Source of the DNA: Acidobacteriota bacterium
GTDB lineage: Bacteria; Acidobacteriota; Vicinamibacteria; Vicinamibacterales; CAVVIG01
NCBI GenBank assembly: GCA_043743165.1
Contig: JAYTXA010000066.1
Location: 4,847 to 68,846, forward strand
Length of the DNA stretch: 64,000 nucleotides
Direction of reading: 5' to 3'
The translations under genes and the position numbers were made by a program. Shown here one piece after another: positions 2,442 to 20,259 of the stretch. Positions within the stretch are counted from its first letter, which is position 1. Each line of letters starts with the position of its first letter. The notes under the pieces are model-generated. The model was not told the DNA's origin, did no database searches, and saw only the letters and a list, made by a program, of their open reading frames with translations.

Positions 2442-3854
2442 ATGACGGCGCTCCCACCCAAGTCGATGAGCCTGAAGCCTAAGACCGTTCTCATCGTCGA
2501 TAGCGACGAGAGCATGCGTGACAGCTTCGCCTCCGCGCTGAAGCGCGAGTTCCGTGTGCTTCGCGTCGGAACGGGCGAAGCCGCCCTCTCGATGCTGACC
2601 AAGGACGAGGTCGATCTCGTGCTGGTCGACGCCCGTCTCCCCGGCATCAGTGGCTTCGAGCTGCTCCAGATCGTCCGGGAGAACTTCCCGCTCATCGAGG
2701 TGATTGTCGCCTCGACCGCCGCCGACGTCGAGACCGCCGTGCAGGCCATGAAGCACGGGGCGTATCACTACATCCCGAACGACGTGCCGCAGGAGCACTT
2801 GCGGGCGCTGCTGCGCCACGCGGGCGAACAGCAGGACCTCTGCCGGCAGGTGCTGGCGCTGTCCGCGCAAGTGGCCGACGAGTCCGGCCGCGAGTTCATC
2901 GTCGGTCCCAGCCGCCTGACCCGCGACGTGATCGACGTCGTGCACCGGGTGGCCAAACTGCCGGCCACCGTCCTGATTCTCGGCGAGAGCGGCACGGGCA
3001 AGGAGCTGCTGGCCCGCCTCATTCACCGCGACAGCGAAAATCCCGAGGCGCCGTTCATCGCGGTCAACCTCTCAGCCATTCCCAGGGAACTGCTCGAGAG
3101 CACCCTCTTCGGCCACGAGAAGGGGGCGTTCACCGGGGCTATCCGCCAGCAACTGGGCAAGTTCGAGCTCGCCGCGGGCGGCACGTTGTTCCTCGACGAG
3201 ATCGGCGACCTGCATCTCGACCTCCAGGCGAAGCTGCTGCGCGCCATCCAAGAGGACGAGATCGAGCGCGTCGGCGGACAGCAGCCGATCAAGACCTCGT
3301 TCCGACTGATTGCGGCAACCAACGTCGACCTCGAGAAGGCCGTGAAGGAAAGCAAGTTCAGGGAGGACCTCTACTACCGGATCAACGTCATTCCCATCAA
3401 GATGCCGCCGCTGCGGGAGCGCTCGGAAGACATTCCGCAATTGGCCGAGTTCTTCCTGCGCCGCTACAACACCCGCTTCCGCAAACGCATCATCGGCATC
3501 ACCGAGTCGACGATGGCCATGCTGAAGAAGTACTGGTGGCCCGGCAATATCCGCGAACTCGAGAACCTGATCGAGCGCATCGTCGCGATGAACGACAAGG
3601 AATACATCGGCGAGGAAGATCTGCCGCTGGAGTTCCACTTCGCGCAGCTCGAGCCGCGAGGTCAACGCAGCGACAGGCTGTTCGAAGATGCCACGAACAC
3701 CTTCGAACGCAACTTCATCCTGCGAGCCCTCGAGAAGTGCGGCTGGAACGTCACCGCCACCTCCGACTACCTTGGCGTACCGCTGAGCACGCTCAAGTAC
3801 AAGATGGACAAGCTCGAGGTTCGTCAGCTCGCCCGTCGCATTCGCGGCGTCTGA
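2442..3854 (+). CDS. sigma-54-dependent response regulator (NtrC/Fis family)
   Basis: Receiver domain (VLIVDSD..DLVLVDARLPG), AAA+ domain (GESGTGKE, ESTLFGHEKGAFTGA, i.e. the GAFTGA loop), and a C-terminal Fis-type HTH. The real start is inside track ORF 708..3854; ATG 2442 or ATG 2466. Confidence 0.9.
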   Translation: MTALPPKSMSLKPKTVLIVDSDESMRDSFASALKREFRVLRVGTGEAALSMLTKDEVDLVLVDARLPGISGFELLQIVRENFPLIEVIVASTAADVETAVQAMKHGAYHYIPNDVPQEHLRALLRHAGEQQDLCRQVLALSAQVADESGREFIVGPSRLTRDVIDVVHRVAKLPATVLILGESGTGKELLARLIHRDSENPEAPFIAVNLSAIPRELLESTLFGHEKGAFTGAIRQQLGKFELAAGGTLFLDEIGDLHLDLQAKLLRAIQEDEIERVGGQQPIKTSFRLIAATNVDLEKAVKESKFREDLYYRINVIPIKMPPLRERSEDIPQLAEFFLRRYNTRFRKRIIGITESTMAMLKKYWWPGNIRELENLIERIVAMNDKEYIGEEDLPLEFHFAQLEPRGQRSDRLFEDATNTFERNFILRALEKCGWNVTATSDYLGVPLSTLKYKMDKLEVRQLARRIRGV

Positions 3855-4090
3855 GCCGTTCGCGCCGGCAATGACGGGCAGGTTCCCAGCCCCGCAGGCC
3901 AAGTCCTTGGCCTGATCGCAAACCATCCGGATTTGCGTACGGAATAGGCGTCCGGACCGCGTTGCGGCACCAGGCGGCCCACCGGTTGCCCCGTCCGGCG
4001 CTGCGGCACCGCGCGAAGAGGAGGCCGGCAGTGGATGCCAACCCTTTGTTTACCAATCGCTTCCAGCGTTTGCCGAGCTCGGCTGGTGCG

Positions 4091-4106
4091 CGGAATACCG
4101 GTTGCA
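4091..4106 (+). promoter_or_regulatory. candidate sigma-54 (-24/-12) promoter upstream of the radical SAM operon
   Basis: CGGAATACCGGTTGCA: GG(4092-93)-N10-GC(4104-05) spacing with a good -12 TTGCA. The -24 half is weak (CGGAAT versus TGGCAC). It lies about 120 nt upstream of ATG 4227 and next to a sigma-54 activator gene. Confidence 0.3.
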
Positions 4107-4226: not shown

Positions 4227-5600
4227 ATGGCGCCTTCGCTCTTCAATTTGCGCGTCCCGTTGCCGGACAATCGGGTGTTTCTCTGGAACACCTTGACTGA
4301 TGCCGAGGCGATCGTTGACGCCGATGTCGATGCCCTGCTCCAGGCGCCTCCGGGTTCTCTCGCGCCGCTCGATGCGGATACCCGTGAGGCACTGCTCACG
4401 CTGACCGAGCACGGGTTCATCACGGACGGACGCCACGCCGATCGCGTCGCCCTGGCGAACCACCTCCACGCCGTCACGCACGACCGCTCGGAACTGCACA
4501 TCTCCATCCTCACGACGCTGGCCTGCAATTTCGGTTGTGGTTACTGCTATCAGGGCGACCGGACGAGCCACGGCCACGCCGCCTCGATGTCGCTCGACAC
4601 GGCCGCACACGTGGCCCGCTGGGTGGAAGCACAGCTCGACGAGGTGCAACCCGAGCGGCTGCTGCTGTCGTTCCTCGGGGGCGAGCCGCTCCTGAACACC
4701 GCCGCCATTCGCGTCATCGCGTCGCACCTGGCGGCTGCCACCAACGCCCGCGGCGTTCGCCAGGTCGTCACCCTGGTGACCAACGGACTGCTGCTCACTG
4801 AAGCGACGGTCCAGGAGCTGCTGCCGTTCGGCCTCGCCGGCGTGAAGGTCACGCTCGATGGTGCCCGCGAGGCGCACGACCGCTCGCGTCCACTGCGCGG
4901 CGGCCAGCCGACGTTCGACCGCATCATCGACAACCTTCGACGTATCGCCCCGCACGTGCCGATCGCCATCGGCGGCAACATCGACCCCGACGATGCCGCG
5001 TCGTTCACCGAACTGCTGGCGTTCCTGAAGGCACAGCCGTTCGCGGACCGGGTGACCCAGGTGAACGTCAAGCCAGTCGTACGCAGCAGCCAGCCCGGCG
5101 CGCTGCGCCTCGGCAACGGCGCCGTCATTCCGCTGCGGCCCGTGGCCGCCGATACGCCGCGTGCGGCGCGGACCGCCGAGAAGGATGACCCCTTCATCAG
5201 GCTCCGTGCCGAGGCGCGGTCGTTCGGCTTCACCACCGCCGACGCCACGCGTCAGGGGCCGTGCCATGTGCACATGGCGCATGCGCACACGATCGGCCCT
5301 GACGGCGCCCGCTATGCCTGCCCTGGTTTCACTGGCGATCGGGCGCTGCCGGTCGGCCACATCAGCGGCCACAGCACGGCCGCCATGCAGCGCGGCCGAC
5401 TCGCCTTCGAGCAGTTGCGGCCCTGGGACGCCTGCGGCGACTGTTCGTTCATTCCCGTGTGCGCCGGCGGATGCGTCGCGTCTTCCTACAGGGAGAGCGG
5501 CGACATCAATCGTCCAGCGTGCCACAAGCGCGGCCTCGAGGCCGCCGTTGTCGAACGCGCGCAGCTGGCGGCGCTCGCCTGCGCAGGAGTTCCCGCATGA
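4227..5600 (+). CDS. radical SAM/SPASM-domain peptide-modifying enzyme with N-terminal RRE-like extension
   Basis: 457 aa. CNFGCGYC (CxxxCxxC) at residues 100-107, and C-terminal ACGDCSFIPVCAGGC (Cx2Cx5Cx3C SPASM signature) plus further Cys. The roughly 90-aa pre-cluster extension contains a winged-helix-like REALLTLTEHGFI. GAGGA RBS lies before the ATG. Confidence 0.85.
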   Translation: MAPSLFNLRVPLPDNRVFLWNTLTDAEAIVDADVDALLQAPPGSLAPLDADTREALLTLTEHGFITDGRHADRVALANHLHAVTHDRSELHISILTTLACNFGCGYCYQGDRTSHGHAASMSLDTAAHVARWVEAQLDEVQPERLLLSFLGGEPLLNTAAIRVIASHLAAATNARGVRQVVTLVTNGLLLTEATVQELLPFGLAGVKVTLDGAREAHDRSRPLRGGQPTFDRIIDNLRRIAPHVPIAIGGNIDPDDAASFTELLAFLKAQPFADRVTQVNVKPVVRSSQPGALRLGNGAVIPLRPVAADTPRAARTAEKDDPFIRLRAEARSFGFTTADATRQGPCHVHMAHAHTIGPDGARYACPGFTGDRALPVGHISGHSTAAMQRGRLAFEQLRPWDACGDCSFIPVCAGGCVASSYRESGDINRPACHKRGLEAAVVERAQLAALACAGVPA

Positions 5601-5695
5601 CGAAGATCATCATCATCAAGAAGGCGACGACGCACGCAAAGCCGCAGGGCATCTGTCCGATCTACGTCGACGACTTCCCGGCCAGCCGGAAGTAG
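5597..5695 (+). CDS. 32-aa small ORF, candidate radical-SAM substrate/precursor peptide
   Basis: MTKIIIIKKATTHAKPQGICPIYVDDFPASRK. Its ATG overlaps the rSAM stop (ATGA at 5597-5600). AGGAG Shine-Dalgarno at 5585-5589, 7 nt upstream. It is the in-frame tail of track ORF 5459..5695. Confidence 0.5.
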   Translation: MTKIIIIKKATTHAKPQGICPIYVDDFPASRK

Positions 5696-5705
5696 CCGCA
5701 CCAGC

Positions 5706-7178
5706 ATGGCCGGCGTGGGCACACCCCTGAGCAGACGCATGGCTGGCGCAGCCATCATCGTGCTCGCGATCTGCGCGCAGGCCTGTAGCGCGCCGCCGGT
5801 GGTGGCGATGCCCCCCCGTATCCTGCGCATCGGCTTCGGGCTGCCGTCCGGCGACGCCGGCACCAGCGGCGTGCGCCAGGCCGCGCGCATTCTCTCGGTC
5901 GAGGCATTGATCTCGTTCTCGCGCAGCGGGCGGCCGCAGCCCTGGCTCGCCGACCGGTGGGACGTCACCGCGGACGGCCGCACGCTCACGATTCATCTGA
6001 AGTCCGGCATCCGCTTCCACGACGGCCGGGCACTCGACTCCGCCACGGTGCGCGACGCCCTGCAGACCCAGTTGCCCTCGTACATGGGGCCGGCATTCGG
6101 CGACATCAGCGCCATTACCGTGGCGTCGCCGCAAAGCCTGACCATCCAAATGAGGCGCCGCTCGAACTTCGTGCTCGAATCGCTCGATGCCGGTCTCACC
6201 TCGCCCGATTCCCCTGACGCCGGAACGGGCCCGTTCCGATTAGCCGAGCGAGGCAGCAACGACATCCTCGCGCTCGACGCCTATCGCGGCTATCGCGACG
6301 GCAGTCCGGCCATTCCCCGCGTCGAGTTCCACGCCTATCCGTCGGAGCGGGCGGCCTGGGCCGACATGCTGCGCGGCGACGTCGACATGCTCTACGAGGT
6401 GAACGCGGAGGCGCTCCAGTCGCTCGAGCCGTCGCCGCACGTGGCGGTCTACTCGCATCCGCGCAACTACGCCTACGTGCTGTTGATGAACGTGCTGCGG
6501 CCGCAGTTGCGCGACGGGCGGGTGCGGCGCCAGTTGAACGACGCCATCGACCGGCGCCTGCTCGTCCAGGAGGCGATGAACGGCCATGGGCGCCCCATCG
6601 ATTCGCCCATCCCCCCGGACCATTGGGCGGCCGAGCCGGACGACCACACCTCACGCTTCAGCTACACGCCGACGCCGCTCGGCGGCGCGCCACGTTCACT
6701 GACGTGCATCTTCGCCGACGCGTCGCTCGAGCGCATGGCCATGGCGGTGCAGCGTCAACTGCGCCAGATCGGGGTCGAGCTCACGCTCGAGCGCATTCCA
6801 ATCGACCAGCTCTATGCGCGTGCGACGGCCGGACATTTCGACATGCTGCTGGCCGACATGATCGCCGGGCCCACCATGGCGCGTCAGCAATGGTTCTTCG
6901 GCAGCGGCGCGCAGTTCAACTGGGGGCACTACAGCAACCCCGCAGTCGATCGCGCCTTCGACGCGATGCGCGGCGCCGCCTCGGACCCGGAGTACCGGCG
7001 CGGCGTGGCCGCCTACGCACGCGCCATTGTCGACGACCCGCCGGCGATCTTCCTCGCCTGGAGCGAGCGGACGCGCGCGGTCAGTACCCGCTACGCGGTG
7101 CGGGCGGACGCCGGACGCGACGTGCTCAGCACCCTGCGTGAGTGGCGCGAAGCCGACGCCGAGCTCGGGGCGCACTGA
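5706..7178 (+). CDS. ABC-type substrate-binding protein, family 5 (peptide/nickel-type), lipoprotein-like
   Basis: 490 aa. Signal/lipobox-like AAIIVLAICAQAC|S, and SBP_bac_5-like blocks (DRWDVTADGRTLTIHLKSGIRFHDGRALD). No permease or ATPase genes are adjacent. Confidence 0.8.
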   Translation: MAGVGTPLSRRMAGAAIIVLAICAQACSAPPVVAMPPRILRIGFGLPSGDAGTSGVRQAARILSVEALISFSRSGRPQPWLADRWDVTADGRTLTIHLKSGIRFHDGRALDSATVRDALQTQLPSYMGPAFGDISAITVASPQSLTIQMRRRSNFVLESLDAGLTSPDSPDAGTGPFRLAERGSNDILALDAYRGYRDGSPAIPRVEFHAYPSERAAWADMLRGDVDMLYEVNAEALQSLEPSPHVAVYSHPRNYAYVLLMNVLRPQLRDGRVRRQLNDAIDRRLLVQEAMNGHGRPIDSPIPPDHWAAEPDDHTSRFSYTPTPLGGAPRSLTCIFADASLERMAMAVQRQLRQIGVELTLERIPIDQLYARATAGHFDMLLADMIAGPTMARQQWFFGSGAQFNWGHYSNPAVDRAFDAMRGAASDPEYRRGVAAYARAIVDDPPAIFLAWSERTRAVSTRYAVRADAGRDVLSTLREWREADAELGAH

Positions 7179-7179
7179 C

Positions 7180-8919
7180 ATGCGCATCCGTCGCGTCGCG
7201 TCGCGCTTCGCCATCATGCTCGCCGCTGCTGCGCTCGTGCCGCTGGTGGCGTTTGGCGCCTGGTCGCTGGTCACCCTGCAGGGTGCGACGCGCGAGTCGG
7301 TTGTGACCTCGAACCTCGGCCTGGCAACGCGCGAAGCGGAGGACATCTCGCGCGACCTCGAAGGCGATGTCGACATCTTGCGCGCGCTGGCCGCCGACAT
7401 CCAGGACACCGGCCTCCAGCGCTGGCAGAAGGACCTGATCCTCAAGAACTACGCGCTGCGGTTCCGCGAGTTCCGCGAACTCACCCTGTTCGACCCGAAT
7501 GCCGCGGTGCTCGCCACCAGCCGCGTCGGACAGACACGGCTGACGGTGCCGGCCAGGACGCTACTGACCATCGGCGGGGTGTCGATGTCGCCCATCCACA
7601 TCGACGAAGACCTGCTGCCAACCAGCCTGTTCTCCGTGCCGCTGGTGGAGATCGGGCAGCCCGCCGGATGGCTCGTGGCGGAGTTGAGCCTCGAAGAGAT
7701 GTGGCGCATCGTCGAGAAGATCCGCGTCGGCTCGCACGGCTACGCGCTGCTCGTCGCCGCTGATGGACGCCTCATCGCGCACGGCAACCCGGACCAGCGC
7801 GCGCTCGTGGCGCGTGGCCAGCCCCTGGCAGGCCATCCGCTGCTGGCCGGTGGTTCAGCGGTGACGTGGAAGGAATACCTCGACCTGCGTGGCACCACAC
7901 AGCTCGGCGTGGCGGCGCGCGTGCCCAAACTGGGGTGGACGCTCATCATCGAGCAACCGACGGATGAAGCGTTCGCGACGGCGACGCGACTCGGCTGGCA
8001 GCTGGCGTTCGCGGCCATAGCCGCGCTGGTGCTGATGGTGACCATCGGTGTGGTCCTGGGCCGCCAGTTCATCGCGCCGATTTCGGCGCTCGAGGACGCC
8101 ACCCGGCGGCTCGCGGCCGGCGACTTCCACGCGCGCGCGACGGTGAGCGGCGCCGACGAGTTCGCACGCCTCGGCGGGTCGTTCAACACCATGGCCGATC
8201 GACTGGTGAAGCTGCAGGACGCCATCAAGAGCCAGGAGCGCCAGGTGATGTTCGGCCGTGTCGTCGCCGGCCTGTTCCACGACCTGAATCACCCGATCCA
8301 GAACATCGGCAATAACGCACGGCTCATGCTGCGCGACGATGTGGATGCCGAGACGCGGGTCACACTGCAGGCGACCATCGACCGCGAGCTCGGCACGCTG
8401 CGCCGCTTCATGGACGATGTGCTGAACGCGGCACGGCCGCGTCCGCTCGATCGCTTCCCGATGGAAGTGAACGGCTCCGTGAACGAGGTCGCCGACGCCA
8501 TGCGCGCCGAGAGCGACCGCGCGCGTGTGCTGATGGTGGTGCGGTGCGCGGCCGGCCCCCTCATCATCGATGCCGATCGCTTCGCCATCAGCCGCGTCTA
8601 TCGCAACCTGCTCACCAACGGGCTCCAGGCTACGCCGCCTGGTGGACGCGTCACCGTCAGCACGGCACGCATCGGCGGCCGCATCGAGATCAGCGTGACG
8701 GACACGGGGGGCGGCATTCCGCCCGAGCGCCTCGCGGCCATCTTCGACGACTTCGTCACGACGAAGCATCGCGGCCTTGGCCTCGGTCTCGCGACGTCAC
8801 GCCGCATCGTCGAGCAGCTCGGGGGCACCATCGCCGTCGTCAGCACGGTCGGCGAAGGCTCGACCTTCACGCTGCGCTTCGAAGCCAGCCCCGCGCAGGC
8901 GATAGAAGCCGCGAGCTAA
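7180..8919 (+). CDS. sensor histidine kinase (2 TM, periplasmic Cache-like domain, HAMP, HisKA, HATPase)
   Basis: Starts at MRIRRVASRFAIMLAAAALVPLV, 1 nt after the SBP stop. HAMP (APISALEDATRRLAAGDF), H-box LFHDLNHPIQN, N/G boxes NLLTNGLQAT, DTGGGIP, GLGLGLA. Confidence 0.9.
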   Translation: MRIRRVASRFAIMLAAAALVPLVAFGAWSLVTLQGATRESVVTSNLGLATREAEDISRDLEGDVDILRALAADIQDTGLQRWQKDLILKNYALRFREFRELTLFDPNAAVLATSRVGQTRLTVPARTLLTIGGVSMSPIHIDEDLLPTSLFSVPLVEIGQPAGWLVAELSLEEMWRIVEKIRVGSHGYALLVAADGRLIAHGNPDQRALVARGQPLAGHPLLAGGSAVTWKEYLDLRGTTQLGVAARVPKLGWTLIIEQPTDEAFATATRLGWQLAFAAIAALVLMVTIGVVLGRQFIAPISALEDATRRLAAGDFHARATVSGADEFARLGGSFNTMADRLVKLQDAIKSQERQVMFGRVVAGLFHDLNHPIQNIGNNARLMLRDDVDAETRVTLQATIDRELGTLRRFMDDVLNAARPRPLDRFPMEVNGSVNEVADAMRAESDRARVLMVVRCAAGPLIIDADRFAISRVYRNLLTNGLQATPPGGRVTVSTARIGGRIEISVTDTGGGIPPERLAAIFDDFVTTKHRGLGLGLATSRRIVEQLGGTIAVVSTVGEGSTFTLRFEASPAQAIEAAS

Positions 8920-10136: not shown

Positions 10137-11168
10137 ATGGACGCACGCTCGGTCAGGAACGGCGCTTGCCTTTCCCGTGGTGAGGTCCTTGCTGACACCA
10201 TGCCACTGCTGCTTGCGATCGAACCCGATGCACGACAGGCGGCCTGCCTGACGGCACTCGTGCCGGCGCATCTCACCGCGAACCTCGTCCTCGTGACGTC
10301 CGTGGACGACGCACTCACCGCCCTCGAGCAGCAGCGGCCAGACCTGGTGCTCACCACGCCGTGCCTCAGCGCGTCTGACCAGGCGGTGTTGCTGGCGAGG
10401 CTGGGCGCCAGTAACGGGCACTACCCGGTCGTGCCGACCCTGGCGATTCCACGCTTCACAGCCGACCCGACGTCGCCACGCGGCCCGCACGGAGTGCTGG
10501 CGCGGCTGCGCCGTCCGCGCTCGCCGCGAGGCACACCCGACTGCGAGCCGGCGGCCTTTGCCGCGCAGATCACCGAATGCCTTGCACTGGCGGAGGCCGT
10601 GCGGCGCGCCTGCGCACAGGCCACAACCGGAGGAATGCCTGGCACCACACTGCCGGAGTCGGATGCAGCGACTGCGGCGATACAGCTTCGCGTGACTGCC
10701 GAATCCGAACGTGCCGACGACCCAGCCGTCGATGGTGGGTGGCTCGACCTCGAGCCGTTCCTCGACGACGAGACGATGGCCGAGAGGCTGCGGCATGCAC
10801 ACGACGCTGATGGACTGCAGGAGCCAGATGTCATCGAACTGCCCCCGCCTGACGAGCTGTGGGCGCAGCTTGCGCCCGGCTACACCGCGCGGATGGCGCC
10901 ACTCGAAGGGCCGTCGATGAGTCCGCGGGCAGCGCACGCCGCGACGCACGGGGGGAGCAGCAACATGGAAGCACCCGAGGCTGTGGGCGTTCCGCTGCGG
11001 CTGGTGCGCGCACGCACCGGTTCAGACCGGCCGATGCAGGACGAGTGGGGCCTCTACGACCCCGAGCAGTGCGGGTTTGCGGCGTTGCGACTGCGCCTCG
11101 AGGAACTGGCTGACGACGACCGACGCGAGCAGGACCGCGTCACTCGCTCTGCTATTATTCGCCGGTGA
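10137..11168 (+). CDS. hypothetical protein with N-terminal receiver-like (probably pseudo-receiver) domain
   Basis: The likely start is ATG 10200 (MPLLLAIEPDARQ..). The domain has a CheY-like beta-alpha pattern, but DLVLTTPCLS sits where DLVLLDxxMP is expected. The stop overlaps the GTG of the next gene (GTGA). Confidence 0.4.
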   Translation: MDARSVRNGACLSRGEVLADTMPLLLAIEPDARQAACLTALVPAHLTANLVLVTSVDDALTALEQQRPDLVLTTPCLSASDQAVLLARLGASNGHYPVVPTLAIPRFTADPTSPRGPHGVLARLRRPRSPRGTPDCEPAAFAAQITECLALAEAVRRACAQATTGGMPGTTLPESDAATAAIQLRVTAESERADDPAVDGGWLDLEPFLDDETMAERLRHAHDADGLQEPDVIELPPPDELWAQLAPGYTARMAPLEGPSMSPRAAHAATHGGSSNMEAPEAVGVPLRLVRARTGSDRPMQDEWGLYDPEQCGFAALRLRLEELADDDRREQDRVTRSAIIRR

Positions 11169-13780
11169 CGTCTTCCAGGGCGCGCGCCCTGATGCTGAGT
11201 GGGCTGTTGGCGCTGGCCGCGCCGGCCGCCGCCCAGGTCCCCACGCCAGACGCCCACTTCGGTTTCAGGCTCGGATCCGATCGTCGGCTTGCGACCGCTG
11301 ACGACATCGCCCGCTACTTCACCCGTGTCGCGTCGCAGACCGATCGCGTCACGCTGATCGACCTCGGCAACACCACCGACGGGCATGCCATGCCGGCCGC
11401 CGTGGTGAGCGCGCCGGAGAACATCCGCAACCTCGACCAGATACGCGCCGCCAACCTCCGCCTCTCCGACCCGCGCACGCTCGAGCCTGACGAGGCCAGG
11501 CGTCTGGCTGCGACGCAGAAGGTCATTGTCGCCATCGGCGGCAGCATTCACGCGTCGGAGGTTGGCGCCGCGCAGGCCGCCAGCGAGCTTTTGTACACGC
11601 TGGTGACCGCCACCGACGCGCAGACGCTGGCCGTGCTGCAGAACGTCGTGGTGGTGCTCATCCCGTCACTGAACCCCGATGGCCAGCGACTGGTGGCCGA
11701 CTGGTACGAGAAGCACAAAGGCACGCCGTGGGAGGGCGGGCCGATGCCGTGGCTCTACCAGAAGTACGCCGGGCACGACATCAATCGCGACGCGTTCATG
11801 ATGAACCTGGCGGAGAACCGCAATCTCGCACGGTTCATGTACAGCGACTGGCACCCGCAGGTCTTCCTCACCATGCACCAGATGGAAGAGAACGGACCGC
11901 GGTTCTTCGTGCCGCCGAACACCGATCCGATCGACCCCAACTCCGACCCGCTCATCTGGCGATCCGCCGCGCTGCTCGGCAGCGGCATGGCGCTGCAGAT
12001 GCAGGCTGAAGGCAAGTCGGGCGTCGTCTCGAGCGCGAAGTACGACTACTACTGGCCCGGCTTCGAGGACTCGGCGCCGATCGGCCACAACACCGTCTGC
12101 CTGCTGACCGAGGTGGCCAGCGTCGACGTGGCCACGCCCGTGAACGTGCCGGCGACGGAACTGCGCGCCGGCTTCAAGGGACTCGCCGACTACCGTCCGC
12201 AGATCAATTTCCCCGACCCATGGCCCGGCGGCCGCTGGACGCTGCGCGACATCGTCGACTACGACCTGAGCGCGGTGCGCGGGTTGCTCGTCGCGGCGTC
12301 GGCGTATCGCGAACAGCTCGTGCTGAACTTCTACACCATGGGGCTGCGCGCCGTAGAAAAGGGGCGCCAGGGCGGACCGTTCGCGTTCCTCATTCCTCCC
12401 GAGCAGCACGATCCGCTCACCACCGCCCGGCTCGAGGAACTACTGCTCGCCGGCGCGATCGAGATCCAGCGCGCGATGGAGCCGTTCCGCGCCGACGGCG
12501 AGCCGTATCCGGAGGGCACGGACATCATCTTCATGACGCAGCCGTACCGGGCGTACGTGAAGTCGCTGCTCGAGCGCCAGAGCTATCCCGCGCGGCGCAT
12601 TGCCCCGAACGGACCGCCCGAGCGCCCCTACGACGTGGCTGGCTGGACGTTGCCGATGCAGATGGGCGTCAGCGTGGTCACCATCGAGCGCCGGTTCGAG
12701 CCGCCGTCGCTCACGCGCGTCACGACGCCACGCCTGCTGCAGGGCTCGGTGTGGGGCGAACGCAAGCCGGCCTACTGGGTCATAGACGGGCGCGGCAACG
12801 GGGCGGCGCTGGCGGTGAACCGGCTGCTGGCCGCCGGCGCCATGCCGTCGTGGACGACGACCGGACTCGACACGCTCGGGTTACACCACACCGCCGGCGC
12901 CATCGTCGTGCCGTACGTGCGGAACAGCGAAGCCGTGGTGGCGCGTGTCGCCCACGACCTCGGATTGCGCGTGGACGGCATGAAGGGCAAGCTGCCGCCG
13001 AAGCTCCAGCCGATCGGCCGGTCGCGAGTCGCGGTGTACAAGCCGTGGACCGCCAGCATCGATGAAGGCTGGACGCGGTTCGTCCTCGATCAGTTTGAAT
13101 TCACATATTCCGGGCTGACCGATCAGCAGGTGCGCGCCGGCAATTTGCGCGCGCAGTTCGACGCCATCGTGCTGCCGAACGTTCCGGGCAACATGCTGAC
13201 GGCCGGCTACGCGTCTGACGTCGTACCGCCGGACTATGCCGGCGGCCTCGGCGATGCGGGCATCGAGGCATTGCGGCAATTCACGCGGGCCGGCGGCAGC
13301 CTCATCTGCCTGGGTGCATCGGGCGGACTGGCTATCGGTGCGTTCGAGCTGCCGGTGCGCGACCTTGCGCGTGAGAACGACGACCGCCTCTTCGTCCCCG
13401 GCTCCATTGTCAGGCTGACGCTCGACCCGACGCATCCGCTCTCGTTCGGCATGCAGCCGGACACCGCGGCGTTCTTCGCCTTCAGCTCGGTGTACGCCGC
13501 CGCGTCTGCGACAGCACGCGCCGAAGAGCCGCGCGATCCGTCGCTGGCCGCCGGTGTGAAGACCGTGGCGCACTACGGCGAACGCGACGTGCTGCTGAGC
13601 GGCTGGCTCGAGGGCGAATCGATCCTGGCCGGACGGGCCGCTATCCTGGAAGCGCCCGTCGGCAGCGGACGCGTGGTGCTGTTCGGCTTTCCCGTGCAGC
13701 ACCGCGGCCAGGCGCACGCCACGTTCCGCCTGCTGTTCAACGCGCTGTTCACGTCGCCGCAGGGGCCGGTGAAGAAATAG
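11165..13780 (+). CDS. secreted M14-family zinc carboxypeptidase-like protein
   Basis: 871 aa. Signal peptide ALMLSGLLALAAPAAAQ, and an HxxE zinc motif in GGSIHASEVG. The long C-terminal extension is of unknown function. Confidence 0.75.
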   Translation: MTSSRARALMLSGLLALAAPAAAQVPTPDAHFGFRLGSDRRLATADDIARYFTRVASQTDRVTLIDLGNTTDGHAMPAAVVSAPENIRNLDQIRAANLRLSDPRTLEPDEARRLAATQKVIVAIGGSIHASEVGAAQAASELLYTLVTATDAQTLAVLQNVVVVLIPSLNPDGQRLVADWYEKHKGTPWEGGPMPWLYQKYAGHDINRDAFMMNLAENRNLARFMYSDWHPQVFLTMHQMEENGPRFFVPPNTDPIDPNSDPLIWRSAALLGSGMALQMQAEGKSGVVSSAKYDYYWPGFEDSAPIGHNTVCLLTEVASVDVATPVNVPATELRAGFKGLADYRPQINFPDPWPGGRWTLRDIVDYDLSAVRGLLVAASAYREQLVLNFYTMGLRAVEKGRQGGPFAFLIPPEQHDPLTTARLEELLLAGAIEIQRAMEPFRADGEPYPEGTDIIFMTQPYRAYVKSLLERQSYPARRIAPNGPPERPYDVAGWTLPMQMGVSVVTIERRFEPPSLTRVTTPRLLQGSVWGERKPAYWVIDGRGNGAALAVNRLLAAGAMPSWTTTGLDTLGLHHTAGAIVVPYVRNSEAVVARVAHDLGLRVDGMKGKLPPKLQPIGRSRVAVYKPWTASIDEGWTRFVLDQFEFTYSGLTDQQVRAGNLRAQFDAIVLPNVPGNMLTAGYASDVVPPDYAGGLGDAGIEALRQFTRAGGSLICLGASGGLAIGAFELPVRDLARENDDRLFVPGSIVRLTLDPTHPLSFGMQPDTAAFFAFSSVYAAASATARAEEPRDPSLAAGVKTVAHYGERDVLLSGWLEGESILAGRAAILEAPVGSGRVVLFGFPVQHRGQAHATFRLLFNALFTSPQGPVKK

Positions 13781-13801: not shown

Positions 13802-15925
13802 ATGACCGATACGTACAAGAACATCGAGAAGCTCGAGAAGGATCTCTGGGCGGCCGCCGACCAGCTTCGCGCCAACTCGAAACTCACCTCCAGCGACTAC
13901 TTCATGCCGGTGCTCGGCGTGATCTTCCTCCGTCATGCCGCGAACCGTTTCGATGGAGCGGCCAGGCAGATTGCGGCCGATCAGGCCAGCGGCAAGATGC
14001 CGAAGCGACGCGTCCGCCCGGAAGACTACGTGGCCAGGCGCTCGCTCTTTCTGCCTGAGAACGCCCGCTACGACTGGCTGATGGAACAGGCCTCGGTGCG
14101 TGGCGGCGACCTGCCGGCGTTGGTCACGGCCGCGATGAGCGCCATCGAAGCGTCGTTCGAGCCGCTCTCGGGTGTGCTGCCGAAGGACTACGGCATCTTC
14201 GAACCGAAGGTGCTCGAAGACCTGATGCGATTGTTCAACAGCGAGCAGGTGAAGACCGCCACCGGCGACGTGTTCGGCCGGATCTACGAGTATTTTCTGG
14301 CTGAGTTCTCGGTTCAGAAAGCGCACGACAACGGCGAGTTCTTCACCCCCTCCTCACTCGTCCAGACCATCGTCAATGTGATCGAGCCGGATCACGGCAC
14401 CGTGTTCGACCCGGCCTGCGGCTCCGGCGGCATGTTCGTGCAGTCGAGCCACTTCATCGAGAACGAGGGCGAGGACACGGCGAAGAAGGTGGTGTTCTAC
14501 GGCCAGGAGAAGAACCGGGACACCATCCGCATCGCGAAGATGAACCTGGCGGTGCACGGGTTGGACGGCAGGATTGCCGAGGCCATCACCTACTACCAGG
14601 ACGAACACACGCTGGCCGGCCGCTGCGACTTCGTCATGGCCAATCCGCCGTTCAATGTCGACCTGGTGGACGGCGAGCGCATCAAGAGCGATCCCCGGCT
14701 GCCGTTCGGGCTGCCGGGCGTGAACAAACAGAAGAAGGTGGGGAACGGGAACTACCTCTGGATCTCCTACTTCTGGAGCTACCTAAACGAGAAGGGGCGA
14801 GCCGGGTTCGTGATGTCGTCGCAGGCTTCCAGCGCCGGGCACGGCGAGAAGGAGGTGCGCCGGAAGATTGTGGAGACCGGCGACGTCGACGTGATGATTT
14901 CCGTCCGCTCGAACTTCTTCTACACGCGATCGGTGCCGTGCGAACTGTGGCACTTCGACCGGAACAAGCCGGCCGAGCGGCGCGACAGCGTGCTGATGCT
15001 GGACGCGCGCAACATCTACCGCAAGGTCACCCGCAAGATCTTCGACTTCACGCCTGAGCAACTCCGCAACATTGCCGCCATCGTCTGGCTCTATCGCGGC
15101 CAGCAGGAGCGGTTTCTCGCGCTTGTGCAGGACTACCTGGCTCGCGTATGCGCGGAGAGCACGGCGGCCCTCGCGGCGCTGGCACCGTTCGAGACAACAC
15201 TGGCGGACGTGCGGGCCAGGCTCGAGGCCGCGACTGGCGCGGTGGCTGCCTCGTCGGAGGTCGACGCCACGAAGAAGCAGGCCCTCACCGAGGCGTCCAC
15301 CGAACTGGCCGCCGCTGCGGCAGCGTATACGACAGACGCGCAGGCCTTGCGCACCGGCGTCGGCGCGTTCGTGCGCACGCATCCGTCCGAGACCGCTGCC
15401 AGCAACGACGCACAGCACGGCGCACGTAAGGCGTTCGAGCCGCACGCCGAGGCGCTGCGCGGGCTGGTGAAGCAGGTGGACCTACTCTACAAGCTGGCGT
15501 CGCGCGCGGCGGACCTGACGGGCGAGCTTTCATCGGGCGACGATGCGATATCGGCCGTGTATGAGCGGCGCGGCACAGGCCGGGTGGTGAAGCAGCTCGA
15601 AGAAGCGCGGAAGAGCGCCGTGGAGCAGTTGAAGCTGGCGGCGTACTTCCACCGGCAGGTGGCGTGGCTGCAGGACCGCTTCCCGAACGCGGAGTTCGTC
15701 GCGGTGCCTGGATTGGTGAAGCTCGTCACGCGCAGCGAGATCGAAGCTGCAGATTGGAGCCTCACGCCGGGGCGCTATGTTGGCGTGGCACCGGCGGCGG
15801 TGGACGAGGACTTCGACTTCGAGCAGACGATGCGGGACATCCACACTGAGTTGGCTGACTTGAATCGGGAAGCTTCTGAGCTTGCGGCGGCGATCCAAAC
15901 GAACCTCGAGTGGTTCGGGGTATGA
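13802..15925 (+). CDS. hsdM: Type I restriction-modification methyltransferase subunit
   Basis: 707 aa. HsdM N-terminal domain, motif I DPACGSGGMF, motif IV FVMANPPFN. Long Ala-rich coiled-coil C-terminal region. Confidence 0.95.
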   Translation: MTDTYKNIEKLEKDLWAAADQLRANSKLTSSDYFMPVLGVIFLRHAANRFDGAARQIAADQASGKMPKRRVRPEDYVARRSLFLPENARYDWLMEQASVRGGDLPALVTAAMSAIEASFEPLSGVLPKDYGIFEPKVLEDLMRLFNSEQVKTATGDVFGRIYEYFLAEFSVQKAHDNGEFFTPSSLVQTIVNVIEPDHGTVFDPACGSGGMFVQSSHFIENEGEDTAKKVVFYGQEKNRDTIRIAKMNLAVHGLDGRIAEAITYYQDEHTLAGRCDFVMANPPFNVDLVDGERIKSDPRLPFGLPGVNKQKKVGNGNYLWISYFWSYLNEKGRAGFVMSSQASSAGHGEKEVRRKIVETGDVDVMISVRSNFFYTRSVPCELWHFDRNKPAERRDSVLMLDARNIYRKVTRKIFDFTPEQLRNIAAIVWLYRGQQERFLALVQDYLARVCAESTAALAALAPFETTLADVRARLEAATGAVAASSEVDATKKQALTEASTELAAAAAAYTTDAQALRTGVGAFVRTHPSETAASNDAQHGARKAFEPHAEALRGLVKQVDLLYKLASRAADLTGELSSGDDAISAVYERRGTGRVVKQLEEARKSAVEQLKLAAYFHRQVAWLQDRFPNAEFVAVPGLVKLVTRSEIEAADWSLTPGRYVGVAPAAVDEDFDFEQTMRDIHTELADLNREASELAAAIQTNLEWFGV

Positions 15926-17151
15926 GTTGGAGTTCTGACGTTCTCGGGGCGGTCGTGAAGCGCGGCGGCGGCGCGATTCAGACAGGCCCTTTCGGCTCGC
16001 AACTTCACCAAGCCGACTACACACCGGACGGCGTTCCGGTCATCATGCCGAAAGACATTCGTGAGGGACGGGTGAGCACGGAAACCGTGGCTATGGTGTC
16101 CGAGCCAACGGCCGTCCGGCTAAAGCGTCATCGACTGGCTCCGCGAACGATCGTTTTGCCCCGGCGAGGCGAAGTCACGAAGCGGGCTTTCATCAGGGAG
16201 GACCAACGGGGCTGGCTCTGCGGAACAGGCTGCCTTCAGATAGTCCTGGGCGGCAGCGAGCTGCATCCAGAGTTCCTCTACTACTTCATGGAGCAACAGG
16301 AAGTCGCTCGCTGGCTGGAGCAACATGCGGTAGGCACGACGATGCTGAATCTGAGCGCCGGCATTGTGGCGGACCTCCCCTTGCGCTATCCGGAAGCGGC
16401 GAGCCAGGGACGCATTGCCGGGATTCTCGCAACCTACGACGACCTGATTGAGAACAACCGTCGCCGCTTGGCGCTGCTCGAAGACGCGGCGCGGCAGGTC
16501 TATCGCGAGTGGTTCGTCCGCCTCCGCTTCCCCGGCCACGAGCACACACGCGTCGTCGACGGCGTGCCTGAAGGATGGTCATCGTGGAGAGTTGACGAGA
16601 TCTGCGACGTTGGCCGGGGCGCTTCACCGCGGCCGATAGCCGCGTTCATGGGCGGCGACATTCCATGGTTCAAGATCGGAGACGCGACCGGGTCTGAGAG
16701 CCCCTTCGTGCTCAGAACTGAGGAGCAAGTAACCGATAAGGGCGCCGAGAAGAGCGTCGCCCTTGAGGCCGGCGCGCTTATTCTTTCTAACAGCGCCACC
16801 TGCGGTATCCCATTCTTCACTGGGGTGCCAGGATGCATCCACGACGGCTGGCTGTATTTCACATGCTTGAAAAGAGTGTCGGAGCGGTTTCTCTACTGCT
16901 TCCTCCACTTCAAGAAAGATGAACTCGTCAGCAGCGTCAGCGACGGTTCCACCCAGAAGAATCTCAATACCTCCGCGGTAAGTAGGTTGGTCATGCTGCT
17001 TCCCGACAACGACCGCCTGCTCGGGCACTTCGAGGAGACGGTTCAACCGATGTTCTCGCAGGCACTGAATCTCGCGGGGCAAAACCAAAAGCTCCGAGCC
17101 GCGCGCGACCTGCTGCTGCCACGCCTGATGAGTGGTGAGATCACCGTATGA
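15922..17151 (+). CDS. hsdS: Type I restriction-modification specificity subunit
   Basis: ATGA overlap with the hsdM stop. Two target-recognition halves are separated by conserved helices (RRRLALLEDAARQVYREWFVRLRFPG, and KLRAARDLLLPRLMSGEI at the C-terminus). Confidence 0.9.
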   Translation: MSWSSDVLGAVVKRGGGAIQTGPFGSQLHQADYTPDGVPVIMPKDIREGRVSTETVAMVSEPTAVRLKRHRLAPRTIVLPRRGEVTKRAFIREDQRGWLCGTGCLQIVLGGSELHPEFLYYFMEQQEVARWLEQHAVGTTMLNLSAGIVADLPLRYPEAASQGRIAGILATYDDLIENNRRRLALLEDAARQVYREWFVRLRFPGHEHTRVVDGVPEGWSSWRVDEICDVGRGASPRPIAAFMGGDIPWFKIGDATGSESPFVLRTEEQVTDKGAEKSVALEAGALILSNSATCGIPFFTGVPGCIHDGWLYFTCLKRVSERFLYCFLHFKKDELVSSVSDGSTQKNLNTSAVSRLVMLLPDNDRLLGHFEETVQPMFSQALNLAGQNQKLRAARDLLLPRLMSGEITV

Positions 17152-18881
17152 GCCCGAAGCCGACCTCGAAGCCTACCGTCAACAGTGCGAGCGCGGCAGC
17201 GCCGCCACCAACGCCAACCGTCCTGCTGCAACCGGACAACAGCAACAAGAAGTACGAAGCCCTGTTCGTCCAGATCGACACCGGAGAGATCAAGTTGCCG
17301 CGGTTCCAGCGGGAGTTCGTCTGGGACAAGGAACAGTCGGCCAAGCTGATCGACTCCATCCTGAAGGGCTTTCCCATCGGCACCTTCATCTTCTGGAAGA
17401 CCAAGGAGGAACTGCGCAGCTACAAGGAAGTGGGCAACCACAAGCTGCCGGACACGCCCAAGGGCGACTACGTTCAGTACATCCTCGACGGCCAGCAGCG
17501 CATCACGTCCCTGTATGCCATCAGGAAGGGCATCCGCCTGACCAAGGACGGCAAGGAAATCGACTACAAGGACATCTTCATCGACCTGCACTTCGACGCT
17601 GCGAAGGATGAGCAGATCGTCGTGACGGAAATGCTCGAAGGCCGAGCCTACGTCTCGGTCCACGATGTGCTGAGCAAGTCGCTCATGAGCCTGTTAAAGG
17701 CCCTCGGTGCGGAGCACGCCGAACAGATCGAAACCTACCGGAACACGCTCACGACCTACGACTTCTCCACCATCGCCATCAAGGACTACCCCATCGAGGT
17801 GGCCTGCGAGATCTTTTCCCGCATCAACACCGGCGGGAAAGTGCTGACCGTGTTCGAGGTGATGGTCGCCAAGACCTACGACGAGTCGAAGCGGTTCGAC
17901 CTGTCCGAGCGCTACGAAGTGCTCCGCGATGGCTCGGACGATGAGAAGGACTGCCTGGCAGCGGCGGGGTTCGACACGCTGCCGGCGTCAATCGTGATGC
18001 AGTGCGTGGCCGCCATCACACTCGGAGCCGTTCGAAGCCGCGATATCCTGAAGATCAAGCGAGAGACGTTCATCGCCAACTGGGAACCGATGAAGGCGGC
18101 TCTGTTCATGGCTGTCGACTTCGTCCGCGCCGAACTGCGCGTGCCGGTGTCCCAGCTCGTGCCCTACCCGGCCGTGCTGGTGCCGCTCACCTACTTCTTC
18201 CATACGATTGGCAACAAGAAGGCGAGCAACGACCAGGCTCGCCGGCTGGAACAGTTCTTCTACTGGGTGGGACTGACCGAGCGCTACAGCTCGGCAACGG
18301 AGTCGAAGCTGGCGGAAGACTTCGCCCGAATGGACGCCATTCGCAGGAGCAAGGCGCCCACGTATCCGCACAGCGAACTCGTGATCGACCCGAGCGCGAT
18401 CAAGGAGACGACGTTCTCCGCAGGCAACGCCTACTGCAAGTCGATCCTGTGCCTGCTCGCTTACCAGCAACCCCTGTCGTTCGACACCAGCGGTCTCGTC
18501 AACCTCGACAACAGCCACCTGAAGATCGCGACAAGCCGGAACTATCACCACTTCTTCCCGAAAGCCTACCTGGCCGGCGTCGATCCTCACGCCGAGCCGA
18601 ATCTCGTGGCGAACATCACGCTGATTGACGGCTATTCGAACAAGCACCGCATCGGGAAGAAGGCGCCGGGCAGCTATATCGGGAAGTTCGCCAAGGCCAA
18701 CAAGAAGCTGACCCACGCCCTGAAGACCCACCTGATCGGCGACCTGGACGAATACGGCGTGCGCGACAACGACTACGACGTCTTCATCGATCGGCGGTCG
18801 AAAGCGATCGCTCTCGCCCTGAATGTGAAGTTGGGATCGATGACACGAAAAGAGGCGGCCGAGGCCGACGGGGCCGAGTAG
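17148..18881 (+). CDS. DUF262/DUF1524 (GmrSD-like) protein embedded in the Type I R-M operon
   Basis: ATGA overlap with the hsdS stop. DUF262 motifs LPRFQREFVW, FPIGTFIFW and ILDGQQRITSLY. The C-terminal His-Me-like region is HHFFPKAYL..NITLIDGYSNKHRIGKKAP. Confidence 0.85.
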   Translation: MSPKPTSKPTVNSASAAAPPPTPTVLLQPDNSNKKYEALFVQIDTGEIKLPRFQREFVWDKEQSAKLIDSILKGFPIGTFIFWKTKEELRSYKEVGNHKLPDTPKGDYVQYILDGQQRITSLYAIRKGIRLTKDGKEIDYKDIFIDLHFDAAKDEQIVVTEMLEGRAYVSVHDVLSKSLMSLLKALGAEHAEQIETYRNTLTTYDFSTIAIKDYPIEVACEIFSRINTGGKVLTVFEVMVAKTYDESKRFDLSERYEVLRDGSDDEKDCLAAAGFDTLPASIVMQCVAAITLGAVRSRDILKIKRETFIANWEPMKAALFMAVDFVRAELRVPVSQLVPYPAVLVPLTYFFHTIGNKKASNDQARRLEQFFYWVGLTERYSSATESKLAEDFARMDAIRRSKAPTYPHSELVIDPSAIKETTFSAGNAYCKSILCLLAYQQPLSFDTSGLVNLDNSHLKIATSRNYHHFFPKAYLAGVDPHAEPNLVANITLIDGYSNKHRIGKKAPGSYIGKFAKANKKLTHALKTHLIGDLDEYGVRDNDYDVFIDRRSKAIALALNVKLGSMTRKEAAEADGAE

Positions 18882-18921
18882 TGCAGTCCACGCCGCTCAT
18901 GTCTTGAACATCTTGCCGGCG

Positions 18922-18958
18922 GTTTACAAATTACAGTACTATCGACGTTTTTGTAAAC
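18922..18958. promoter_or_regulatory. 9-bp inverted repeat (candidate XRE operator) in an AT-rich promoter island
   Basis: GTTTACAAA(18922-30)-N19-TTTGTAAAC(18950-58). A possible TTACAG-N17-TAAACT promoter overlaps it. It lies 17 nt upstream of the XRE-ImmA start. Confidence 0.35.
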
Positions 18959-18974
18959 TATCTGATTTGGAGAG

Positions 18975-20054: not shown

Positions 20055-20259
20055 TGGCGCCCTTCGCTCGTTAGCTGAGGCCGAACAGGTCGAGTGCCAC
20101 GGGGTGCTCTGGGTTCTTGACCAGCTCGAACAACACGGTGCCCTGACGGCCCCCCAGTTGGCTGAAGCGCTGACGACCATTCAGGACCATCCACGATGCC
20201 GGTTGCCTGGCGGCGAGATGCGGCGTCGCCTCGAGCGATATCGCGACTCGCAGCCGTAG
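20035..20259 (+). CDS. small ORF, possible remnant of a PIN-like/DUF3368-type protein
   Basis: 74 aa. GVLWVLDQLEQHGALTAPQLAEAL weakly recalls the C-terminal part of DUF3368/PIN-like proteins (from memory only). It overlaps the ImmA end by 20 nt. Confidence 0.2.
   Translation: MPSMPGDGALRSLAEAEQVECHGVLWVLDQLEQHGALTAPQLAEALTTIQDHPRCRLPGGEMRRRLERYRDSQP

Follow-up and report, generated by a model that had tools for sequence, protein, structure and literature searches.

A putative σ54-controlled operon for a single-cysteine radical SAM peptide in Vicinamibacterales and its candidate sensory partners

A 64,000-nucleotide stretch of an Acidobacteriota genome (assembly GCA_043743165.1, contig JAYTXA010000066.1, positions 4,847 to 68,846; the window below) encodes a radical S-adenosylmethionine (SAM) enzyme whose stop codon overlaps the start of an open reading frame (ORF) of only 32 codons. 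An original prediction, made from the letters of the stretch, took this ORF for the precursor of a peptide that is made on the ribosome and then modified post-translationally (RiPP) and for the substrate of the enzyme. The locus raises the question of whether so short a frame is a gene, which reaction its product might undergo and what the cell would use it for. On balance, we favour an answer in which a σ54-controlled operon makes a peptide with a single Cys-Asp thioether ring, perhaps sensed by its own substrate-binding protein (SBP) and kinase. The regulatory context, comprising the σ54 regulator, the promoter, the SBP and the kinase, was absent from the original prediction and is the more interesting part of the locus.

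The enzyme, a 457-aa radical SAM/SPASM peptide maturase identified with Pfam, NCBIfam, an AlphaFold2 model, Foldseek and a profile search of the PDB, is encoded at 4227-5600 on the plus strand, as are all genes described here unless stated otherwise, and the small ORF at 5597-5695. The overlap of the two was confirmed, with the TGA of the enzyme gene and the ATG of the ORF sharing the ATGA at 5597-5600. The ORF has its own Shine-Dalgarno sequence, AGGAG at 5585-5589, 7 nt ahead of the ATG and within the end of the enzyme gene, and encodes the 32-aa peptide MTKIIIIKKATTHAKPQGICPIYVDDFPASRK, as originally read. ORFs of at least 30 codons are common by chance in a window of 66% G+C, in which dozens of spurious ORFs of similar size were found. 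A scan of one genome per species yielded 404 loci, and the comparisons reported here use the best 80 of these, all of which belong to one lineage, the Vicinamibacterales (Acidobacteriota). An ORF of 29-37 aa followed the radical SAM gene in 68 of the 74 loci that fully cover the region, overlapping it or starting 0-30 nt after its stop codon (in most loci with an overlap or a gap of at most 17 nt). The proposal that a conserved short ORF should follow orthologous enzymes was thus borne out, and the enzyme-first, ATGA-coupled layout, originally described as atypical, is instead the norm in this family. Across the homologous loci the peptide ORF is preceded by a TAGGAGA Shine-Dalgarno sequence, part of which is the TAG stop codon of the radical SAM gene.

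The 67 orthologous peptides recovered from the 81 loci searched were all different from one another. Conserved residues are specified by synonymous codons (AAG/AAA for Lys, CCG/CCC/CCT/CCA for Pro, GAC/GAT for Asp and TGC/TGT for Cys), indicating selection at the protein level. When 1.84 billion representative proteins were searched with a profile, 107 clusters at 50% identity emerged, nearly all of 30-34 aa. These comparisons strongly support the small ORF as a genuine protein-coding gene of an unnamed peptide family. No Pfam or NCBIfam model matched the peptide, which, as the original prediction had it, falls outside every named precursor family. When 11 peptides of the family were compared with NCBIfam at E ≤ 10, a search in which the HMMER filters may hide very weak matches, none was found, geopeptide included, other than a meaningless match to methanobactin (E = 6.4). 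Public records, where they name the peptide at all, call it 'hypothetical protein', and a literature search found no paper on this radical SAM-peptide system.

The layout of the peptide was analysed in a set of 188 distinct sequences, admitted only if they had the leader motif and one or more Cys, and this gave the family motif MKIxVIKK…K-P-x-x-Φ-C-x-x-x-[VI]-[DE]. The leader, which spans approximately residues 1-13 in the window peptide (MTKIIIIKKATT), follows the pattern M-K-I-x-[VI]-[VI]-K-K. Lys is found at position C−5 in 90% and Pro at C−4 in 89% of the peptides (K15-P16 in the window), and an aromatic residue precedes the Cys in ~70%. Exactly one Cys (C20) is present in 183 of the 188, although conservation of Cys as such is built into this set by the entry requirement. 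The three positions that follow, C+1 to C+3, are hypervariable, with an entropy of 2.6-3.5 bits (P21-I22-Y23 in the window), and lead to Val or Ile at C+4 (91%; V24), an acidic residue at C+5 (183 peptides, 97%; D25) and frequently a second one at C+6 (78%; D26), after which a Pro-rich stretch and a basic tail complete the peptide. In two family representatives from outside the window, P0198 and P0217, the core occurs twice in tandem behind a single leader (e.g. MKIQVIKSAKPSTFCQWMVDEVPLSKMNAKPSAFCQWMVDEVPLSKK). Such duplication is typical of RiPP precursors and suggests a modular core unit starting with 'AKP' ('AKP…K').

In five loci (L016, L022, L057, L058 and L077) the peptide gene is interrupted by a stop codon or frameshift and is still recognisable. 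As four of these are long-read metagenome-assembled genomes (MAGs), sequencing error is likely, and L016 is possibly a true pseudogene. The peptide gene of L079 is degenerate.

The sequence features by which the enzyme had been recognised were all read again in its translation. The radical SAM motif CX3CX2C lies at residues 100-107 (C100-N-F-G-C104-G-Y-C107; nt 4524-4547), and the ~90 residues ahead of it include the segment REALLTLTEHGFI. The Cx2Cx5Cx3C signature, C403-x2-C406-x5-C412-x3-C416, proved to be part of a complete seven-Cys SPASM region (residues 346-432; nt 5262-5522), in which it is flanked by C346-x13-G360-x4-C365 and C432, in agreement with the pattern CX9-15GX4C … CX2CX5CX3C … C. 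All seven Cys are invariant in 120 homologues. Pfam matched Radical_SAM (PF04055, 3.5e-14, above the cut-off) and Fer4_12. The best NCBIfam match was the geopeptide maturase TIGR04280, whose cut-off of 400 bits lies well above the 233.8 bits reached over residues 36-441; next in order came CefB (161.6 bits, cut-off 600), TIGR04463 (151.5, cut-off 525), FlmE/OhkG (128.2, cut-off 500), PapB (NF047865; 105.6, cut-off 340), QhpD (102.5, cut-off 453) and the SCIFF maturase TIGR03974 (89.1, cut-off 425). These nearest families are all peptide maturases, several of which act on Cys-containing peptides. By sequence the enzyme is a member of the broad radical SAM/SPASM peptide maturase class that stands outside every named family, and since it scores below every NCBIfam cut-off, no function can be transferred to it by orthology. 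More than 3,000 homologues of the enzyme are on record in the protein database; most are unnamed, and the two named ones listed are each a 'radical SAM protein' (Acidobacteria, Luteitalea).

Orthology to the anaerobic sulfatase maturases (anSME), which act on a large protein and had been set out as the finding that would speak against a peptide substrate, was rejected. The corresponding model, TIGR03942, gave only 63 bits against a cut-off of 349, the enzyme has an additional N-terminal domain and seven rather than eight SPASM Cys, and no sulfatase gene was found near the locus.

The N-terminal extension had been proposed to be a RiPP recognition element (RRE), and here the outcome was divided. 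In an AlphaFold2 model built with 120 sequences (mean predicted local distance difference test score, pLDDT, 81.5; an earlier model from 15 sequences reached 58 and its N-terminus was unusable), the first 88 residues were modelled with a pLDDT of ~90 as strands at 7-11, 16-21 and 26-31 followed by helices at 32-39, 50-61 and 69-84. This β1β2β3-α1α2α3 order is the topology of an RRE. Foldseek placed CteB (5WGG/5WHY) and TigE (8VPO), both RRE-bearing, at the top with full-length alignments, followed by ChlB, anSME, SuiB, SkfB and PqqE, and a sequence profile of the whole enzyme also found CteB as its best match in the PDB (2.8e-27). At the level of sequence, however, Pfam gave no match, PqqD included, for five N-terminal domains, and a PDB profile search with residues 1-92 returned only insignificant matches to MarR/SlyA winged-helix proteins. 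The fold thus held in the model and found no counterpart in the sequence searches.

At residues ~288-319 (window 5088-5183), a region disordered in the model, the window enzyme is missing a segment of ~25 residues, as are the six relatives closest to it (P0002-P0007). In the other ~113 family members this segment bears three nearly invariant Cys (KPLGGTCMTSAGAG…CDSC), which may serve a third cluster or bind a metal. As the peptide of the subclade without the segment looks typical, these three additional Cys seem dispensable.

Taken together, the conserved pairing of enzyme and peptide supports the main proposal of the original prediction, that the peptide is the substrate. In the reaction that we favour, the RRE-like domain would bind the β-strand-like leader MKIxVIKK, and the radical SAM core with the SPASM auxiliary clusters would link the single Cys with the C+5 acidic residue and so close a thioether ring of six residues, C-x-x-x-[VI]-[DE], three of them hypervariable. 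A Cys-to-Asp thioether had been suggested before, and it fits the family motif, in which one Cys and an acidic residue at C+5 are each found in 183 of 188 peptides. Modification of Tyr, the other reaction considered at that time, was discarded as the reaction of the family because Tyr occupies C+3, one of the most variable positions, in just 12% of peptides. In CteB an open site on an auxiliary cluster binds the substrate Cys, and by analogy the presence of seven rather than eight SPASM Cys here would be consistent with an auxiliary cluster on which one site stays free for the thiolate of the substrate.

The closest parallels to such a product are the ranthipeptides. PapB/PapA (freyrasin) and CteB/CteA (thermocellin, SCIFF) likewise combine an RRE, a radical SAM domain and a SPASM domain, CteB being the best match in both sequence and structure, and their substrates too are short ribosomal peptides in which a Cys is followed at a fixed spacing by an acceptor (Asp, Glu or Thr). 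QhpD, which makes Cys-Asp and Cys-Glu thioethers, is also a radical SAM/SPASM enzyme with recognisable similarity to the present one, again far below the family cut-off, but its substrate QhpC is an enzyme subunit instead of a free peptide, and no qhp genes are present at this locus. The differences from ranthipeptides are equally clear. SCIFF and PapA contain six Cys and several rings, whereas the present peptides have one Cys and presumably one ring; the scores against the PapB and SCIFF maturase models lie far below cut-off; and here the peptide gene follows the enzyme gene, in a Gram-negative Acidobacterium and within a σ54/SBP/kinase operon. The spacing is C-X4-D/E, in contrast to Cys-X3-Asp/Glu for PapB, an enzyme that accepts n = 0-6 (PMC9413430). 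The geopeptide maturase family, a 'hypothetical equivalog', scores best over almost the whole enzyme, yet below its cut-off, and the geopeptide system is itself uncharacterised, with no paper mentioning it found in our literature search.

Several points weigh against this reading of the chemistry, and some of them would suit a different outcome, such as a sactionine bond (S to Cα) to another residue, oxidation of the Cys as catalysed by sulfatase maturases, epimerisation or a C-C crosslink to the aromatic residue next to the Cys. The enzyme reaches the cut-off of no named family; the RRE call is drawn from the model and has no match at sequence level; and the ring partner, as read from sequence patterns, could be another residue or an α-carbon. 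The peptides of three loci (L017, L059 and L061), a 'CPWM' subgroup with C-P-W-M-I-[AST], have no acidic residue at C+5, and the regulators and kinases of these loci are the most divergent (60-64% and 46-48% identical, respectively, to those of the window). With Asp or Glu as the ring partner, the 'CPWM' peptides would have to use a different acceptor. A different chemistry is also compatible with the structural neighbours, which include TigE, a cyclopropylglycine synthase, ChlB and anSME, and with the aromatic residue ahead of the Cys in most peptides. We nevertheless regard it as the less probable outcome. An acidic residue is fixed at C+5 in almost every Cys-containing peptide, the variability at C−1 and at C+1 to C+3 is too great for an obligatory partner there, the seven SPASM Cys would leave an auxiliary-cluster site open as in CteB, and the nearest characterised relatives, CteB, PapB and QhpD, form Cys thioethers.

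The purpose of the peptide has to be sought in the genes around it. In every locus long enough the order is σ54 response regulator, radical SAM enzyme, peptide, lipoprotein SBP and dCache histidine kinase. The regulator (2442-3854) is of the NtrC/AtoC type, with REC, AAA+ σ54-interaction and HTH_8 domains (Pfam Response_reg, Sigma54_activat at 3e-68, AAA_lid_14 and HTH_8). Its best NCBIfam matches are AtoC, NtrC and the PEP-CTERM response regulator, all below their cut-offs, and its gene lies upstream of the radical SAM gene in 77 of 81 loci with 60-85% identity. Downstream of the peptide, a family-5 SBP (SBP_bac_5, Pfam 1.1e-46; 5706-7178), present in 71 of the 81 loci, is a probable exported lipoprotein and a candidate co-sensor, and its homologues carry lipobox signal peptides. 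Its nearest NCBIfam families, NikA, Opp (Opp5A)/Dpp and CntA, score far below their cut-offs. No ABC permease or ATPase was found within ±10 kb, and the SBP is thus an orphan. The last gene (7180-8919; 65 of 81 loci, the remainder mostly contig ends) encodes a membrane histidine kinase with a periplasmic dCache_1 domain between two transmembrane segments, followed by HAMP, HisKA and HATPase_c domains (Pfam; transmembrane segments read from the sequence). The four genes downstream of the regulator all point the same way, with overlaps or gaps of 0-15 nt between them. In the window the enzyme and peptide genes overlap by 4 nt, the SBP starts 10 nt after the peptide stop codon and the kinase 1 nt after that of the SBP; in other loci the SBP usually starts 0-15 nt after the peptide. 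A scan for promoters and terminators found no intrinsic terminator in the operon and one σ70-like match, on the minus strand near HU and outside the cassette, and no Rfam family was found in the window.

Between the activator gene and the radical SAM gene lies a σ54-type −24/−12 promoter, CGGAATACCGGTTGCA (4091-4106, plus strand; GG at 4092-4093 and GC at 4104-4105), 136 nt before the ATG of the enzyme, which is the only match to this motif in the 64-kb window. The motif [CT]GG[AC]A-N6-TTGC[AT], typically as TGGAACACGCGTTGCA, was present in 76 of 77 regulator-to-enzyme intergenic regions, and only five further matches were found elsewhere in 1.33 Mb of these loci, an enrichment of ~750-fold. 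Across loci, GnCAA-N4-TTGnC-like palindromes stand at fixed offsets of approximately −113, −194 and −215 from the −24 element. The palindrome GGCCAAG-TC-CTTGGCC at 3897-3912, which begins the series in the window 193 nt ahead of the −24 element, is a candidate upstream activating sequence (UAS), and no other match to GNCAANNNNTTGNC exists in the 64 kb. A second UAS-like site, GCCCACCGGTTGCC at 3977-3990 (114 nt upstream), has two mismatches to the consensus and is weak on its own, and it falls at the most populated offset (−110 to −115, 39 loci). Palindromes and promoter next to an activator gene have the classic layout of an enhancer-dependent σ54 promoter. The conservation of these elements and the gene packing strongly support an operon, headed by the σ54 promoter, of the radical SAM/SPASM maturase, a 30-33-aa peptide, the orphan SBP and the dCache kinase.

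This arrangement offers a possible role for the peptide. In the version that we favour, the matured peptide would reach the periplasm and be bound by the SBP, which would pass the signal via the kinase to the σ54 regulator; activation of the operon by the latter would close a positive feedback loop like those of agr or comQXPA, and the variable ring together with the very fast-evolving SBP would set its specificity. As in agr (AgrBDCA) and comQXPA of Firmicutes, the locus holds a precursor, a modifying enzyme, a histidine kinase and a response regulator. In those systems the structural genes are under the control of the regulator, and here the σ54 promoter and palindromes beside the activator gene would fit such control. 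A hypervariable candidate signal and receptor with a conserved regulator form a further likeness. The systems differ in chemistry, thiolactone formation or prenylation there and, as predicted, radical SAM chemistry here, and in the apparent use of a separate lipoprotein SBP for sensing, of σ54 for output, and in the acidobacterial host; no Pfam or NCBIfam match to AgrB, AgrD, ComQ or ComX was found. The sensory half of the cassette resembles LuxP/LuxQ/LuxO, TorT/TorS/TorR and AioX/AioS/AioR, in which the gene of an orphan periplasmic binding protein adjoins that of a periplasm-sensing kinase. The periplasmic domain of LuxQ is a tandem PAS that resembles dCache, and both LuxO and AioR belong to the σ54 activators. 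Systems of an SBP, a kinase and a regulator are known, AioX/AioS/AioR being one example (PMC7565993, PMC5908839). Here, by comparison, the SBP is of the family-5 peptide/nickel type and the candidate ligand is encoded in the same operon, and no orthology to the LuxPQO, TorTSR or AioXSR proteins was found (LuxO model against the regulator, 321 bits, cut-off 800). Ranthipeptides have been implicated in quorum-sensing-related regulation in clostridia, according to the mention of Chen et al. 2020 in PMC8102284.

The rates at which the genes of the cassette diverge were compared over 31 complete loci. Mean pairwise identity was 0.82-0.83 for the regulator, 0.66 for the radical SAM enzyme, 0.63-0.64 for the kinase and only 0.40-0.42 for the SBP, which is by far the fastest-evolving gene of the block. 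In pairs of genomes whose dihydrolipoamide dehydrogenases (Lpd) are 86% and regulators 91% identical, the SBPs are ~50% identical, and where the regulators are 94-95% identical the ring residues of the peptides differ in nearly every case. The distance between peptide cores tracks that between SBPs when regulator distance is controlled for (partial Mantel r = 0.32, p = 0.0005), which gives weak support to co-diversification of peptide and SBP. Divergence in this manner resembles the signal and receptor polymorphism of agr and comQXPA, and it could instead reflect relaxed constraint.

A sensory role for the peptide has its own difficulties. Partial Mantel tests are inflated by shared phylogeny, fast-evolving proteins resolve phylogeny better and so may yield a Mantel signal, and periplasmic proteins evolve fast for many reasons. 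The nearest families of the SBP bind nickel or metallophores as well as peptides. Neither an exporter nor a leader protease was found within ±10 kb and the peptide has no signal sequence, which leaves its route to a periplasmic SBP unexplained and is the main weakness of the favoured reading. ComX likewise has no known dedicated exporter. The lack of an exporter and protease and the families nearest to the SBP would be accommodated if the SBP, kinase and regulator sensed an external cue, such as oligopeptides or a metal chelate, and switched on the enzyme-peptide pair, the product being an effector (an antimicrobial or metal-binding peptide, or an intracellular factor) and not a signal. The promoter and enhancer evidence fits this alternative equally well, dCache kinases commonly sense small molecules directly, and the Cys with the Asp-Asp motif could bind metal. 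It is the chief rival explanation of the cassette and, in our view, the less probable one. With SBP, kinase and peptide genes sharing one σ54 operon, the cassette has a feedback design of the sort typical of autoinducer systems, an SBP that evolves fastest and in step with the peptide core would not be expected for a conserved nutrient or metal ligand, and bacteriocin clusters do not resemble a single-copy core-genome locus that lacks an immunity gene. We therefore keep the peptide as the candidate ligand, and put forward only tentatively the fuller suggestion that the locus is a peptide pheromone (quorum-sensing) system in Acidobacteria, built from a radical SAM-cyclised single-ring peptide, an SBP, a dCache kinase and an NtrC-type activator. 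We know of no peptide-pheromone system described in Acidobacteria.

That the two-component system and SBP are neighbours of the enzyme-peptide pair by descent only, and functionally unrelated to it, was also considered. The shared order across genomes is lplA, lpd, a small ORF, the cassette, HU and queF, and by this synteny the five-gene block is inherited vertically as part of the core genome, at a single fixed chromosomal position in Vicinamibacterales, and is not a mobile cluster. As all loci, from a single lineage, keep one order, and lpd, HU and queF are syntenic in most of them too, adjacency alone is weak evidence of a functional link, and this counts against the favoured reading as well. 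The link is drawn instead from the σ54 promoter and enhancer signals, the operon packing and the orphan state of the SBP. The promoter and palindromes sit exactly between the activator and radical SAM genes in 76 of 77 loci, the four genes behind them are closely packed in one direction, and the SBP is without a transporter partner, making mere shared descent improbable. A mobile bacteriocin-type cluster was likewise rejected, as the block lies between lpd and HU/queF in nearly all loci; its occurrence as one copy in the window and its lack of genes for immunity or export also disfavour such a reading.

The proposal that the small ORF is a chance frame or a mere coupling device, the enzyme acting on another substrate such as a protein, draws on the abundance of random ORFs of at least 30 codons in a G+C-rich window and is effectively refuted by the comparative data, namely amino-acid conservation with synonymous variation over more than 180 distinct sequences, a strong Shine-Dalgarno sequence of its own, a modelled leader-binding domain of the RRE type in the enzyme and the exclusion of the anSME family, so that we give it hardly any credence.

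Other features of the surroundings were recorded alongside. On the opposite strand, a conserved 88-aa ORF (2126-2392, minus) that overlaps the start of lpd encodes an N-terminal transmembrane segment and a region resembling a coiled coil; present in 55 of the fetched loci and without a Pfam match, it was not counted as part of the cassette. An 871-aa protein with a Peptidase_M14 (zinc carboxypeptidase) domain is encoded at 11165-13780, 5.5 kb downstream of the peptide gene, and such an enzyme could shorten the peptide at its basic C-terminal tail. Its gene is also present on the contig of P0036 and not at that place in L081, and owing to this inconsistent linkage it was not counted as a tailoring enzyme. 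Downstream of the syntenic block, 13802-23696 (plus strand) is occupied by a type I restriction-modification island encoding HsdM, HsdS, a GmrSD-like nuclease, an HTH/M78 (ImmA/IrrE-like) protein and HsdR, which is absent from the equivalent place in L081. Four of the loci (L001, L002, L012 and L020) are MAGs titled 'uncultured Bifidobacterium' or 'Bifidobacteriaceae' in GenBank. They are syntenic with the Vicinamibacterales loci, with Lpd and regulator 77-86% identical where the contig reaches, and the labels are probably wrong.

Vicinamibacterales (Acidobacteria subdivision 6) are abundant in soil and rarely cultured, and their social behaviour and regulation are poorly known. Judged by its sequences, the locus adds a new precursor family and a non-orthologous maturase to the known class of radical SAM/SPASM enzymes. 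Less usual is its fixed integration into a circuit of σ54, SBP, kinase and regulator, which an order of soil Acidobacteria retains in its core genome. A core with one Cys, one acidic partner and three free positions would make a minimal substrate with which to study and engineer radical SAM thioether macrocyclisation. Sensor, regulator, promoter, enzyme and peptide have been kept together, unlike the genes of an accessory, antibiotic-type RiPP cluster, and this conservation suggests a physiological or signalling role. If the peptide is indeed the ligand of its own SBP and kinase, the cassette would represent a new architecture of peptide communication in Gram-negative bacteria and give a handle on cell-to-cell signalling in soil communities, and the co-diversification of peptide ring and SBP would create strain-specific 'pherotypes' across an abundant soil order.

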